Below are positions 40,934-55,047 of a stretch of DNA of 64,000 nt, one piece after another. The translations under genes and the position numbers were made by a program. The number at the start of each line of letters is the position of its first letter. Position 1 is the stretch's first letter. The stretch lies in the IMG/VR virus record IMGVR_UViG_3300011008_000002; one strand, 5' to 3'. The notes beneath the pieces are model-generated. The model saw nothing but the letters and a program-made list of their open reading frames with translations, had not been told where the DNA came from and ran no database searches. Source of the stretch: a virus (Duplodnaviria; Caudoviricetes).

Positions 40934-41039
40934 CAAAACACAAAAAATGATGGATTTTATAAATTAAATATTCCTATACAAAAAAAGTAATGGGAGGTTC
41001 AACTGATGGCACAGTATTCCCTCCCGAGTTGTCAACTAA

Positions 41040-41219
41040 TTAGCTGATATCGACAGCAGTAGGCGTATATTTGATTTGATCATAATAAGGTACGCCTACT
41101 GCCCATGTTGTCTGCCTAGAATCAGCTTTAACAAACAGCTGTTTCCCAATGGCTTCCAACTTGGGTGATAGGTGATGAACTGGTTTCCCGTATGTACTTA
41201 TACGGGAAGCCAAGTTCAT
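41040..41219 (-). CDS. 59 aa TWAVGVPY-motif peptide, below the ORF-track cutoff, overlapped by a 38 aa ORF MELDMRT... (41128-41244)
   Basis: MNLASRISTYGKPVHHLSPKLEAIGKQLFVKADSRQTTWAVGVPYYDQIKYTPTAVDIS*; 21/34 aa identical to copy 2, with 8 synonymous third-position changes. Confidence 0.6.
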   Translation of the reverse strand: MNLASRISTYGKPVHHLSPKLEAIGKQLFVKADSRQTTWAVGVPYYDQIKYTPTAVDIS

Positions 41220-41307
41220 CTCTAGTCCTCATATCGAGTTCCATATCTAATTACCTCCTTTCATAAAGTATAAATAGAAAGTATTATACTTTCTATTTAT
41301 CTAAGTA

Positions 41308-41318
41308 TTTAATATAGT
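41308..41318 (-). promoter_or_regulatory. Early promoter motif ACTATATTAAA
   Basis: Exact consensus. Confidence 0.65.
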
Positions 41319-41411
41319 TACAAAAAGTCTATGAACCTGAATTTTTGTAATAGTAAAAAATAAATGGGCAAGTGGTATATTTCAACCCTTGTCCATTTAC
41401 TTATGTGAGAA

Positions 41412-43856
41412 TTACTTCTCGTTAATTCTGATACGAATAATAGAGTCACCACGTCTTACCGGTGCAACTTTCGCACATTTTGCGTGTCTCGATAGTACCT
41501 TAATCGCAGATATATCAACTTCTGTCTTGTCACCTGATTGCATCTGGAATACCATAGTGGAATTATATAACTTATCGTTCATTGGTATTATCTTAAAGAC
41601 TTCATCTCCATCGTTTAATCTCGTAAGCTCTAGCATTGTCTGACGTTTCTTTGTTGCCATAAATGCTTCATCGAGTTCAACGATTTTAGCAAAGCCTTTC
41701 TTTGTAACAATACAAACTTCTTTTACACCGCGATTGATACAAGCATTCTGTACTTCATCATCCGCATCTATCTTCATCACCTTTTGACCTTTAGTCTTTC
41801 TACCAGTGGAAGGAGATAAAGACAATCTTAGAATAATACCAAATCCTTTCTTGGTATAGATAAGACGTTCATTGTCACTATCACTAAGTAGACCCATAAA
41901 GCAAACTTCATCACCTTCATTGAGAAGCATAGCTCCGAGTCTTGTTCTCGTGACACTGAACTCTGTTAAAGGAGTCGCCTTAATCAACCCTTTCTTCGTA
42001 AAGCAATATAACCGATACTTATCTGGGTTGTCTTTGATAGAAGGAAGACAAGTCTTTATCGCCGTAATAGCTTCACCTGTTATACCAAGTAATTGGTCAA
42101 GACCCATACCTTTTGCAGATGGGTCAGCCGCAGGTATCTTGTCAATCGGAAGATAACACCATTCCCCAAGATTGGTTCCAATGTGGATATAATCCGCAGA
42201 GGTGATATCTTGGAAATATGCGATTACATCATCGTCCGGTTCCAAGAACCCTGTGCCCAAACCTGTAGGAGATAGTCTCTTTACATATTTCTTAGTGACA
42301 ACTACTCGATAATGAAATACTGGAGTACCTGCATCTTCAGGCTTGATAATGTGACACTGTCTTGGTTTCCCAAACAACTTCTTCCCTTCTTCAAGTTCTT
42401 CCCATATTATTTGCTTTATCCTCTTACTAGAGGAAAGAATATCTTCTTTCTCTTTAATCTTACTATCAATCTCAGAGAACTCTTTTTGATATTCTGCAAT
42501 ACTTCCTTTCTTCTGAGCTTTTACTTTCATATTAGATATCAAATTTGCCTGATATGATGTAAACCCAAACCTTGACGTAAGTTCACTGATGATTTCCTCA
42601 TCTGTCTCAGCTTTCTTTATGATATCGAATACATCATCAATCAGTTTCTGATTTCCAAGCCGCACCAAAGCTTCCAACCGATGCTTTTCTTCTCTGAGTT
42701 TTAATAACTCCTTTGCAATCGTTCTGTGTTTAATGTCAATCCTCCAGTCAATCCACTTCAATATACTATCCTTTAATGGAACTGAACCAGTATCCGACAT
42801 CATTTTGGTACGATCGGCATAATTCAGTAATATCTGAGCAGTAGCCCTTAATCCTATGCTATTATCGTTATAGAGTTCATTAATAACATAGTCGGGGTCA
42901 ACGCCCTTCTTTAAGAGAATCCAGAATTCTGTCGTTTCCAAATTACTCTTATCAGAGATATCTTTAATTCCTAATGGACTGCGTTTTTCTCTTTGTCCAA
43001 TAGCTCGAATAATAGCATCCATCGTGGTCTTTTCAGGAAATCCGTTACAGAGGATATAGTTACCTTCCTCGTGATATACAAGTTTTGCTCTAATCCTAAC
43101 AGTTCCTGAGCCAACTGCACAAATGTCTTTTATAACACCATCATCAATGATGTCATAACCTCTTGGGCTATCCGGGAAGAGATAAACACCTTCCATCTCT
43201 GGATGTTCAAGTAATGCCTGAGTCAGGCTAAATGCCTCAATCAAATTACACGGAACCATTGAGAATGAATTACCCCATGCAATTCCTATTGTAAGGTTCA
43301 ATAGGAAATTTGGATATCTTGCAGGAAGTACAACAGGTTCCACATCGCTTCTCAGGTAGTTCTGTTGCATTTCAATAACAGATGGGTCAAACTCCTCGAA
43401 GAAACATTTCCATGCATACTGGCTAAGCCTTGCATCCAAATAACGAGGAGCAGCTGCATCATCGCCTGCCACCGACCCTTCATTTCCATCCATATCTATA
43501 TATAACGCATTATTCTCCCACGTTTTAGTCACATTCTCAAACGCAGTAGCGATACTTTGATCGCCATGCGGATGATATTTCGTTGTAGAAGGGAGAAATT
43601 CTAGTGCTTTTTGGTACCTTCTATCCGGGTAGAGTTTCTTATCATGATACATGAACCATAAAGTTCTTCTTACTACGTTGATAAGCCCATCATATAATAA
43701 TGGACAACCTCTTGCCACAGAGACATTGGCACCATAACGAACAATTCGCTCTTTTGTGTACTCACCGGCATCTATCAATTCAATGTTCTGGTCATACATC
43801 TCTTGAGTCTCTATAATGTCTGAGGCTCTTTTCTTAGGACTTTTCTTGCTTGCCAA
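41412..43856 (-). CDS. gyrA: Type IIA topoisomerase subunit A (GyrA/ParC)
   Basis: DGL..V.RR, KYHPHGD, AAAPRY (catalytic Tyr), P.VLPA..PN.LLN...GIA.G and a beta-pinwheel CTD. Start moved to the TTG after GGAGGTG. Confidence 0.93.
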   Translation of the reverse strand: MASKKSPKKRASDIIETQEMYDQNIELIDAGEYTKERIVRYGANVSVARGCPLLYDGLINVVRRTLWFMYHDKKLYPDRRYQKALEFLPSTTKYHPHGDQSIATAFENVTKTWENNALYIDMDGNEGSVAGDDAAAPRYLDARLSQYAWKCFFEEFDPSVIEMQQNYLRSDVEPVVLPARYPNFLLNLTIGIAWGNSFSMVPCNLIEAFSLTQALLEHPEMEGVYLFPDSPRGYDIIDDGVIKDICAVGSGTVRIRAKLVYHEEGNYILCNGFPEKTTMDAIIRAIGQREKRSPLGIKDISDKSNLETTEFWILLKKGVDPDYVINELYNDNSIGLRATAQILLNYADRTKMMSDTGSVPLKDSILKWIDWRIDIKHRTIAKELLKLREEKHRLEALVRLGNQKLIDDVFDIIKKAETDEEIISELTSRFGFTSYQANLISNMKVKAQKKGSIAEYQKEFSEIDSKIKEKEDILSSSKRIKQIIWEELEEGKKLFGKPRQCHIIKPEDAGTPVFHYRVVVTKKYVKRLSPTGLGTGFLEPDDDVIAYFQDITSADYIHIGTNLGEWCYLPIDKIPAADPSAKGMGLDQLLGITGEAITAIKTCLPSIKDNPDKYRLYCFTKKGLIKATPLTEFSVTRTRLGAMLLNEGDEVCFMGLLSDSDNERLIYTKKGFGIILRLSLSPSTGRKTKGQKVMKIDADDEVQNACINRGVKEVCIVTKKGFAKIVELDEAFMATKKRQTMLELTRLNDGDEVFKIIPMNDKLYNSTMVFQMQSGDKTEVDISAIKVLSRHAKCAKVAPVRRGDSIIRIRINEK

Positions 43857-44149
43857 TATCTTCACCTCCAATCTTCTTTACTTTTTGGTTTTCTTTATCC
43901 TTTCTTTTCAGATAATACCTATAGTCGTCGATCAGGTAAATCGCCATGGAATATATTGTTATGACACTAATACCGACAGTGATAATACAGCATATAGCTT
44001 TTATGAGATCAGAATTAGTTGGAACACCAAGCTGTATTATCACTATTAGTCGGTAAGTTGCATATATAATATATACACAAAGTATGGCAGTATACCATAT
44101 ATCTTATAAGTTCTTCCTTCAAAGAAGTCTTTAATTCTTCTAAAGTCAA
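43834..44149 (-). pseudogene. Small membrane-protein gene, apparently frameshifted
   Basis: The RBS-backed TTG at 44149 (MTLEELKTSLKEELIRY...) stops after 44 aa. The hydrophobic 43834-44043 frame has no RBS. A TA-rich run lies between them. Confidence 0.4.
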
Positions 44150-44361
44150 CGGTTTGAATCACCTCCATACTTGAAATCATATATCACTATTAGTACACCC
44201 ACTATCATACAAATTATAATACAAGCAGATGTACCAATAAGATGGAGACTTAATTCATATTCGTGGACTTCAAGATTTACTATAAACGCATAAATCATCC
44301 ACGCTTCTAATAAACCTGAGAATACAAAGGCTCCTAAGTGTTCTAAAAAGTAGTCTAGCAT
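44146..44361 (-). CDS. Small two-TM membrane protein
   Basis: AAGGAG RBS; two hydrophobic helices. Confidence 0.7.
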   Translation of the reverse strand: MLDYFLEHLGAFVFSGLLEAWMIYAFIVNLEVHEYELSLHLIGTSACIIICMIVGVLIVIYDFKYGGDSNR

Positions 44362-44373
44362 ACAACGGTCTCC

Positions 44374-54341: not shown

Positions 54342-54396
54342 TGATATTGGTTCCATTAGGGACGCCCCTTTTGAAAGATTTTCGGTAAAGTTCCGA

Positions 54397-54434
54397 AAAT
54401 GTCAGAGTGGTGTTCAAATACCACTCTGACATTT
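54397..54434 (+). terminator. Intrinsic terminator
   Basis: Perfect 15 bp stem plus T-rich tail. Confidence 0.8.
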
Positions 54435-54474
54435 CTTCTTGTATTACTTTTTATCATAAGTATAACAAAAAATA

Positions 54475-54680
54475 ATCTAGGAAGTCAGACCTATGGCTCA
54501 GTTTAACTCCCCAGTTCGACCGCATTCGGCTATGCTAACGCATTGAGCCAAACATTAACGCGAGCTCTCTCATAACGCTGAAAGAAGCTCATACGATCGT
54601 CGGCACTTGTTTCAGGTGCCGAAACCTACCTCGTAATCACTGGCTTTGAGACAGCTCTTGGGTGGTTACGAGGTGTTTGT
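54475..54680. ncRNA. Candidate four-hairpin structured RNA
   Basis: Stems tggctca/tgagcca, gagct/agctc, tcggcacttg/caggtgccga and acctcgtaatcac/gtggttacgaggt; GC-richer than flanks. Confidence 0.5.
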
Positions 54681-54795
54681 GCTGTAGTAGCCACTTATAT
54701 TATTTATAAAAGATTCAATATTCCTATACAAAAAAGTAATGGTAGGTTCAACTGATAGTGGTCAGTATTCCCTCCCAAAACACATCGTCAGCTAA

Positions 54796-54984
54796 TTAGC
54801 CGTAAATAACACGAGGTATGTACTTGATTTGCTGTGAGTATGGTACGCCCACAGCCCATGTGGAGTTTTTCAGGTCAGCCTTATCAAAGAACTGTTTCCT
54901 GAGAGACTTCAACTTGTCTGGTAACTGCTGAGCAGTTGGGATATTCTCCTAAACCTGCTCAGCAGTTCTCATATCGAGTTCCAT
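54796..54984 (-). other. TWAVGVPY-motif mini-gene interrupted by an in-frame TAG (54949-54951) in a hairpin loop
   Basis: MELDMRTAEQV*ENIPTAQQLPDKLKSLRKQFFDKADLKNSTWAVGVPYSQQIKYIPRVIYG*; hairpin 54923-54967. Confidence 0.6.
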
Positions 54985-54993
54985 ATCTAATTA

Positions 54994-55004
54994 TTTAATA
55001 TAGT
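54994..55004 (-). promoter_or_regulatory. Early promoter motif ACTATATTAAA
   Basis: Exact consensus, 9 nt upstream of the ATG at 54984. Confidence 0.65.
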
Positions 55005-55047
55005 TGCAAAAAGTCTATGAACCTGAAATTTATTATATATGGTAAAA

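Follow-up and report, generated by a model that had tools for sequence, protein, structure and literature searches.

Why do two copies of a small phage gene each lose their reading frame at a strong hairpin? The two copies lie within a stretch of 64,000 nucleotides (nt), hereafter the window, from the virus record IMGVR_UViG_3300011008_000002 (Caudoviricetes). Each is part of a mini-gene cassette, with every feature on the minus strand of the window. An earlier note on this DNA proposed a hairpin-gated recoding system (bypass, readthrough, or excision of the hairpin), a small effector whose translation is coupled to an upstream open reading frame (ORF), or genes that are turning into structured RNAs. 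We favor a different explanation, with moderate confidence: both lesions would have arisen when DNA polymerase switched templates at a single ancestral hairpin in the coding sequence of a family of putative early genes. This family has three copies, all in this genome, and probably consisted of genes of roughly 62 codons, each in its own promoter-terminator cassette. The lesions belong to a known class of mutations, and the gene family is an orphan.

These are the features at the break points:

41174-41220, minus strand: hairpin of copy 1 (-25.4 kcal/mol, z -8.1); its base includes the ATG of an ORF of 59 amino acids (aa)
41184-41202, minus strand: apex zone of copy 1, with 13 extra nt (equivalent placements are 41190-41202 or 41184-41196)
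54923-54967, minus strand: hairpin of copy 2 (-25.2 kcal/mol, z -6.1), with perfect arms of 13 base pairs (bp) at 54955-54967 and 54923-54935
54936-54954, minus strand: loop of copy 2, 19 nt, inverted relative to the coding orientation, with an in-frame TAG at 54949-54951

Much of the earlier description of these sites held up. Each copy has a strong hairpin, the spacer between the shared peptide segment MELDMRT and a conserved downstream block is 61 nt in copy 1 and 48 nt in copy 2 (exactly 13 nt apart), there is a TAG in the loop of copy 2, and the frame breaks are indeed linked to the hairpins. The hairpins had been called unrelated, and this is not correct. Both are centered within about 2 nt of the same point in the ORF, and although their arm sequences differ, they can be aligned after flipping the loop of copy 2 and taking 13 nt out of copy 1.

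If the loop of copy 2 is replaced by its reverse complement, then the TAG is gone and there is an uninterrupted ORF of 62 codons. Residues 11-17 of this flipped version match copy 1 at 4 of 7 positions, versus 0 of 7 without the flip. When we shuffled the copy 2 loop 200,000 times, just 0.03% of the shuffles had at least 4 matches (p about 3e-4). Similarly, copy 1 without 13 nt at its apex has an ORF of 63 codons, which is identical to the flipped copy 2 at 34 of 63 positions, with one gap near the C terminus. Among all of the frame-restoring deletions within the copy 1 hairpin, the 13-nt deletions at the apex give the best alignment to the flipped copy 2. The 13 extra nt have a 9-nt core that is the exact reverse complement (9/9) of the sequence adjacent to it on the upstream side (41200-41208). 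Each arm of the copy 2 hairpin is itself palindromic, and the arms read nearly alike in both directions. (We dropped a position-by-position comparison of covariation between the two hairpins, as their arms are offset by 3 nt.)

We propose that the ancestral gene would have begun with MELDMRT and would have had a coding hairpin centered near codon 14. In copy 1, this hairpin would have been about 10 bp with a 13-nt coding loop, and an insertion of 13 nt, including a 9-nt inverted copy of the adjacent loop sequence, would have lengthened it to the present stem of 20 bp, with a +1 frameshift as a result. For copy 2, the opposite strand would have served as the template for the 19 nt of loop that lie between the two perfect arms of 13 bp, so the loop is now inverted and reads TAG. 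Three footprints of such events are visible: a spacer that is reverse-complemented between intact arms, with its length kept (copy 2); a templated inverted insertion that lengthens a stem (copy 1); and arms that were made perfect (13/13 in copy 2). Template switching at a hairpin would break each copy at the hairpin's tip. With the apex making up about 10% of each gene, the chance that two random lesions would both land there is about 1%. Template switching at quasipalindromes is known to leave such footprints (PMC7202029, PMC5453318, PMC8794818), and the outcomes listed in PMC8794818 include loop inversions, stem extensions, and insertions in one half of a stem. Mutation by template switching at quasipalindromes was described by Ripley (1982), as cited in PMC7202029.

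What was broken? The downstream block, and a third copy of it that lies outside the window, are at these positions:

41061-41162, minus strand: block of copy 1, 34 codons
54796-54915, minus strand: block of copy 2 (54814-54915) and the C-terminal codons up to the TAA
genome 33926-34225 (L005:1514-1813), minus strand: copy 3, outside the window, with the same terminator and a different upstream region

The earlier note reported that the block has a coding signature, which we confirmed from the rates of change at synonymous and nonsynonymous sites. Between copies 1 and 2, 21 of 34 residues are identical, 8 of them via synonymous changes, and an indel of one codon precedes the shared TAA. The differences fall mostly at third positions of codons (9, 5, and 19 at positions 1, 2, and 3). 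In the frame of the block, the proportion of synonymous differences (pS) is saturated, at 0.61-0.76, and the proportion of nonsynonymous differences (pN) is far lower, at 0.20-0.34; in the two alternative frames, the ratios are near or above 1 in 5 of 6 comparisons. By this pattern of substitutions, the block evolves as coding sequence. We also used parsimony, on the 26 codons that are common to all three copies, to count synonymous versus nonsynonymous changes by lineage. These were 7:2 for copy 1, 7:7 for copy 2, and 5:11 for copy 3 together with the internal branch. Together with the saturated synonymous sites, these counts imply that the copies are old and were under purifying selection for most of their history, with the strongest selection on copy 1 and the loosest on copy 3. 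A TTG within the block was considered as a common start codon and rejected: it lacks a Shine-Dalgarno sequence, and the codon at that position in copy 3 is TTA.

Is any copy still expressed? Three features of copy 1 bear on this:

41040-41219, minus strand: intact ORF of 59 aa that holds the entire block, with a GAGGA Shine-Dalgarno sequence 6 nt before its ATG (41217-41230)
41253-41260, minus strand: strong Shine-Dalgarno sequence, 8 nt before the first ATG
41128-41244, minus strand: upstream ORF, 38 codons long, ancestral in codons 1-14 (MELDMRT...LGFP) and out-of-frame read-on in the remainder

The earlier note stated that the ORF track missed both copies, which overlooked the 59-aa ORF. 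This ORF is already in a public protein collection as a called protein, and it keeps 48 of the 63 inferred ancestral residues. (The AlphaFold model has a pLDDT of 54, so its fold is unreliable.) Copy 1 has also kept a strong ribosome binding site, a perfect terminator, and the tightest constraint. The 59-aa protein is probably still made, from the internal ATG. Both that ATG and its Shine-Dalgarno sequence are at the base of the hairpin, so ribosomes from the upstream ORF may be needed to open it. The start codon also lies under the footprint of ribosomes that initiate at the upstream ATG. If the 59-aa ORF is used, then its translation probably depends on ribosomes opening the stem. The earlier suggestion of a small effector that is coupled to an upstream ORF may hold for copy 1. 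By analogy with other small phage early genes, the protein may have a role in host takeover or counter-defense.

The other two copies are probably dead or dying. Copy 2 has lost more than its frame: besides the inverted loop, its leader and ribosome binding site are gone and a pair in its terminator stem is broken. Copy 3 has an ORF of 18 codons in the frame of the block, from which a single TAA divides it; the codon aligned to this TAA is TCA in copy 1 and CCA in copy 2. Copy 3 also has a strong 18-bp leader hairpin, and it is antisense between two plus-strand genes.

The remaining parts of the two cassettes are as follows:

41307-41341, minus strand: promoter-like 35-mer of copy 1, with a TATATTAAAT core and a downstream G, partly resembling the early consensus of phage AR9
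54993-55027, minus strand: promoter-like 35-mer of copy 2, 34/35 identical to that of copy 1
41270-41300, minus strand: 5' leader hairpin of copy 1, a perfect inverted repeat of 14 bp (-12.8 kcal/mol, z -5.8), absent from copy 2
54964-54993, minus strand: 5' segment of copy 2, fused straight onto the promoter
41056-41102, minus strand: second hairpin of copy 1, with perfect 12-bp arms on the AVGV and TPTA codons (-18.7 kcal/mol, z -5.4)
40979-41025, minus strand: terminator of copy 1, a two-tier hairpin and a T tract (-17.1 kcal/mol), common to four cassettes
54729-54776, minus strand: terminator of copy 2, with one stem pair broken by a C-to-A change (-12.0 kcal/mol, versus -17.1 in copy 1)

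Our alignment bears out the earlier claim that the copies share a promoter flank, the MELDMRT segment, the block, and a terminator. The shared 5' segment is 30 nt (41224-41253 versus 54964-54993, 29/30 identical) and consists of the 9 nt preceding the first ATG and seven codons. Copy 1 had been described as having a ribosome binding site and copy 2 as nearly leaderless, and this is also accurate: 53 nt with the leader hairpin and the ribosome binding site are missing from copy 2, with the deletion lying between short direct repeats. A second hairpin on the WAVGV codons, with a different partner in each copy, is likewise present in both (in copy 2 it has -11.6 kcal/mol and z -2.8), and the geometry differs as well. 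The 7-mer TAATTAG recurs directly after the stop codon in copies 1 and 2.

The resemblance to AR9-type early promoters is partial: there is the TATATTAAAT core, and a G follows 6 nt later. In AR9, the early consensus is AAATATATATTAT, then 6 nt, then a G at +1, and it drives early transcription that is independent of protein synthesis (PMC5312081).

Several observations weigh against our explanation by template switching. First, all three copies of a family that was constrained for a long time are interrupted near the 5' end. This is a coincidence unless the constraint on the family ended recently, or unless the breaks are tolerated or useful. Second, each copy has just one frame-breaking lesion, with no further stops or indels. 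Third, the 59-aa ORF starts at an ATG that came from reading ancestral codons in the +1 frame; copy 2 has not conserved this ATG, and in copy 1 it lies buried within a stem of -25 kcal/mol. Fourth, the promoter and the first seven codons differ at just 2 of 65 nt between copies 1 and 2, while synonymous sites in the block are saturated. Given that saturation, gene conversion or constraint at the nucleotide level is needed to keep the promoter, the seven initial codons, and the terminator nearly identical. Our explanation does not account for the near-identity of the seven codons.

To put these cassettes in context, we considered the genome that they come from. The window is the reverse strand of positions 164958-228957 in a virus record of 229 kb (37% G+C, rated as 97% complete). 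The record encodes gyrase A and B, a DnaB-like helicase, a Dda-like helicase, and two beta-like and one beta-prime-like RNA polymerase genes; the source virus is a jumbo phage with genes for multisubunit RNA polymerases of its own. Genetic code 11 fits the genome, with 89% of it covered by ORFs of at least 100 aa. The stop codons of 176 non-overlapping ORFs are 109 TAA, 50 TGA, and 17 TAG. ARAGORN found no tRNA genes in the whole 229-kb genome. Perfect inverted repeats (arms of 11 bp or more, loops of 3-30 nt) number 88 in the whole genome (G000), as compared to 1-4 in block-shuffled controls. Many of these are terminator-like, and several are inside coding sequence.

Copy 1 is located after gyrA and the gyrA terminator and before a gene of 420 aa. 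We compared this region to three related phages, whose GyrA proteins are about 80% identical and which have kept the gene order. The slot between gyrA and the next gene (window 40944-41411; L012, L013, L014) is hypervariable, with a different small ORF in each of the four phages; a cassette with a promoter of its own occupies it in this genome only. Copy 2 is located after the DnaB-like helicase and faces the end of the Dda-like helicase. Between the terminator of copy 2 and the end of the Dda-like helicase, there are about 340 nt without an ORF (window 54380-54716), which fold into several long perfect hairpins (z of -10.1 on the minus strand and -7.2 on the plus strand). The DNA of this region is not conserved in the three relatives.

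We searched widely for other members of the family. A comparison of the DNA of both cassettes to 50,697 phage records found no match, and the block is absent by tblastn from the three relatives. A word-indexed protein search found only this genome's own 59-aa ORF, as did an exhaustive profile search of 1.84 billion proteins with an alignment of the three copies. Pattern scans of IMG/VR, JGI metagenomes, and GTDB genomes gave chance hits only, with no similarity in the flanking sequence. For the small proteins, Pfam and PHROGs gave nothing, and a protein atlas gave only hits below the threshold. Rfam gave only noise below the threshold.

The cassette is more widespread than the family. Like copy 3, another cassette, which we will call cassette X, was absent from the earlier note and was found elsewhere in the genome:

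genome 86552-86892 (L003/L006), minus strand: cassette X, outside the window, with a promoter (30/35), leader hairpin, and terminator as in copy 1

Cassette X has an unrelated and uninterrupted ORF of 55 aa, and its leader hairpin has paired changes on both arms relative to copy 1. In one of the related phages (G002), there are seven copies of the promoter motif, and most of them precede a small ORF with its own ribosome binding site and a related terminator. Cassette X and the cassettes of G002 imply that the normal layout is a promoter, a structured leader, a ribosome binding site, one small ORF, and a terminator.

Some cassettes of G002 also have hairpins within coding sequence. Three paralogous small ORFs (L037:3973-4137, L037:15664-15876, and L036:946-1188) share an intact coding hairpin whose arms encode the conserved PIL and QYG motifs. 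In one of these paralogs, the stem is extended to 17 bp; another lacks the leader and the ribosome binding site, like copy 2. Two of the paralogs have a conserved upstream ORF of 15 codons that ends at the ribosome binding site of the main ORF. In a profile-profile comparison, this family of small proteins in G002 was not related to the family in our window (probability of 0.3%).

The terminator is found in four cassettes:

window 40979-41025 and 54729-54776, and genome 33926-33977 and 86552-86602: copies of the terminator

It has a symmetric internal loop and is about 90-95% conserved among these cassettes, the coding parts of which are either saturated or unrelated. The terminators of G002 have the same tail motif. 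Perhaps the phage polymerase recognizes the terminator as a specific signal, or a protein binds to it.

Could the breaks be useful? Of the alternatives to template switching as a plain mutation, the one that survives best, which we still consider unlikely, is an on/off switch that is driven by replication, without a recombinase. The loop of copy 2 would flip back and forth, perhaps with gain and loss at the apex of copy 1, and expressing and silent variants would coexist in the phage population, for an early protein that is at times harmful to make, for example if it triggers host defense. An inversion between arms that match perfectly (13/13) should be as easily reversed as made. A switch would also suit the single frame-breaking lesion in each otherwise clean and long-constrained ORF, and the fact that all three paralogs are off at the same time. 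However, copy 2 has lost its ribosome binding site and part of its terminator stem, so flipping its loop back would not restore normal expression. The 13-nt insertion in copy 1 has no obvious route to precise reversal, and copy 3 is off because of a plain TAA. Moreover, the family was found in one genome only, and no second orientation was seen in any collection that we searched. If real, this would be a tiny genetic switch that needs no recombinase and acts on an early gene of a phage, and the phage could silence a protein that some hosts detect. This is the novelty that might remain at this locus.

We consider it rather improbable that the cassettes are now structured early RNAs (stabilized transcripts, decoys, or protein-binding RNAs), with the coding signature as a relic. 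The earlier note had raised this, and as a minor possibility it has something in its favor. The transcripts fold far better than shuffled sequences (z of -7.8 to -8.8 for copy 1, -4.1 to -5.3 for copy 2, and -8.0 for copy 3), cassette X and the cassettes of G002 have z of -5.3 to -8.8, and the terminator, internal loop included, is conserved across four cassettes to a far greater degree than termination should require. On the other hand, the block has accumulated substitutions according to codon position, with pN far lower than pS. The second hairpins differ in partner and geometry, so there is no common structure; there was no match in Rfam; and the intact sister cassettes clearly encode small proteins. 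The structure of these cassettes may have been selected, perhaps for the stability of the transcripts, or may be a by-product of frequent template switching. Either way, the early cassettes of this group of phages are far more structured than expected by chance.

Recoding, the main proposal of the earlier note, seems very improbable. It would require a hop or +1 shift at the apex of copy 1 (TAC-A-TAC) and a bypass or readthrough of the TAG in copy 2. Matched codons that could restore the frame do exist (TAC and TAC with a 1-nt gap in copy 1, and pairs of ACT, GCT, and CAG in copy 2), both sites have strong hairpins, and the upstream ORF of copy 3 is also in frame with the block across a single stop. 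But the pairs in copy 2, which were noted correctly, arise automatically from palindromic arms and are no signal of bypass. They are also 1-4 codons ahead of the stop, and the GTT that does precede the TAG has no in-frame landing copy. As for copy 1, its TAC pair is followed by ATA, with no stop or hungry codon. TAC cannot re-pair on ACA, as +1 frameshifting of the prfB or Ty type would require, which leaves only a 4-nt hop to the second TAC. The site is at the apex of the 20-bp stem, which would already be unwound and could not stimulate shifting. Readthrough is not supported either: the phage uses the standard code with all three stops, there is no sign of an altered code such as genome-wide in-frame use of one of them, and with no tRNA genes there is no suppressor tRNA. 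Copy 2 also lacks a ribosome binding site. Most tellingly, its loop is inverted coding sequence: the residues in common with copy 1 come only from reading the other strand of the loop, and no translational event can recover them.

The least probable alternative is an artefact of sequencing or assembly at palindromes in this metagenome-assembled genome: palindromes can yield fold-back chimeras in libraries, but the hairpins (45-47 nt) are shorter than one read and the 13-bp arms are shorter than the usual k-mers, so an assembler could not flip or pad them, and three types of lesions at three loci, along with a clean deletion of the leader, would be unlikely.

How does this locus compare to known systems? 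In translation control by leader ORFs and hairpins, a downstream ORF is regulated by ermC-type attenuation, or by coupling as ribosomes unfold the hairpin. Copy 1 is similar in that a strongly initiated short ORF crosses a hairpin that hides the Shine-Dalgarno sequence and the ATG of a downstream ORF. Unlike in those systems, there is an out-of-frame overlap of 30 codons between the two ORFs, the arrangement comes from a frameshifting insertion and is not conserved in the paralogs, and we did not see alternative pairings of the hairpin. Another comparison is to Hin, Gin, and fimS, which are invertible DNA switches that are driven by recombinases. As in those switches, inverted repeats flank a segment whose orientation determines if the gene is open or closed. 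However, synapsis by a recombinase needs far more than a segment of 19 bp with arms of 13 bp. The genes nearby encode gyrase A and B and the DnaB-like and Dda-like helicases, none of them a recombinase. We rejected a recombinase-driven switch for copy 2 on the basis of this short segment and these flanking genes.

The promoters and RNA polymerases bring to mind the Bacillus phage AR9, whose early transcription units are read by the virion RNA polymerase (PMC5312081). Both are jumbo phages with beta-like and beta-prime-like RNA polymerase genes, and both have an AT-rich core and, a few bases later, a G, repeated before small genes (PMC5312081). The putative promoters here match the consensus partially and have an extra conserved element upstream.

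The recoding proposal was modeled on T4 gene 60, in which bypassing involves a take-off codon that directly precedes a stop, a landing codon that matches it, a take-off helix that is compact, a signal from the nascent peptide, and a gap of 50 nt (PMC5462505). The likeness is that a phage gene has a hairpin, an in-frame TAG, and repeated codons flanking a gap (PMC5462505). In neither copy is the codon directly before a stop matched by an identical landing codon, and in copy 2 the matched codons are away from the stop. Instead of a compact helix, the TAG of copy 2 is in the 19-nt loop of a 13-bp stem, and the candidate take-off site of copy 1 is at the apex of its stem. Only 11 residues precede the TAG, and the gaps are 9-27 nt; judged on these alone, the nascent peptide and the gap do not fit gene 60. 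Also, the gap sequence in copy 2 is inverted coding sequence. A stop codon in a hairpin with repeated codons is poor evidence for bypassing, as palindromic arms create such repeats unaided. So this is not a second example of recoding in the style of gene 60, and a known class of replication errors explains it better.

That class, template switching at quasipalindromes, is the closest match. In copy 2, the spacer is replaced by its own reverse complement and its length is kept; in copy 1, an inverted copy of the adjacent sequence was inserted and the stem was lengthened; and one pre-existing hairpin would account for both. There are some differences from the reported cases. The lesions are within the coding sequence of paralogous phage genes, and each of them breaks the frame. 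The inverted loop of copy 2 is 19 nt, as compared to loops of 4-8 nt in hairpins of rRNA (PMC8794818). And the events at this locus are deduced from comparing paralogs. Overall, the two genes seem to be a clean natural case in which template switching at one ancestral coding hairpin had two different outcomes in paralogous genes, one of them an unusually long inversion of 19 nt.

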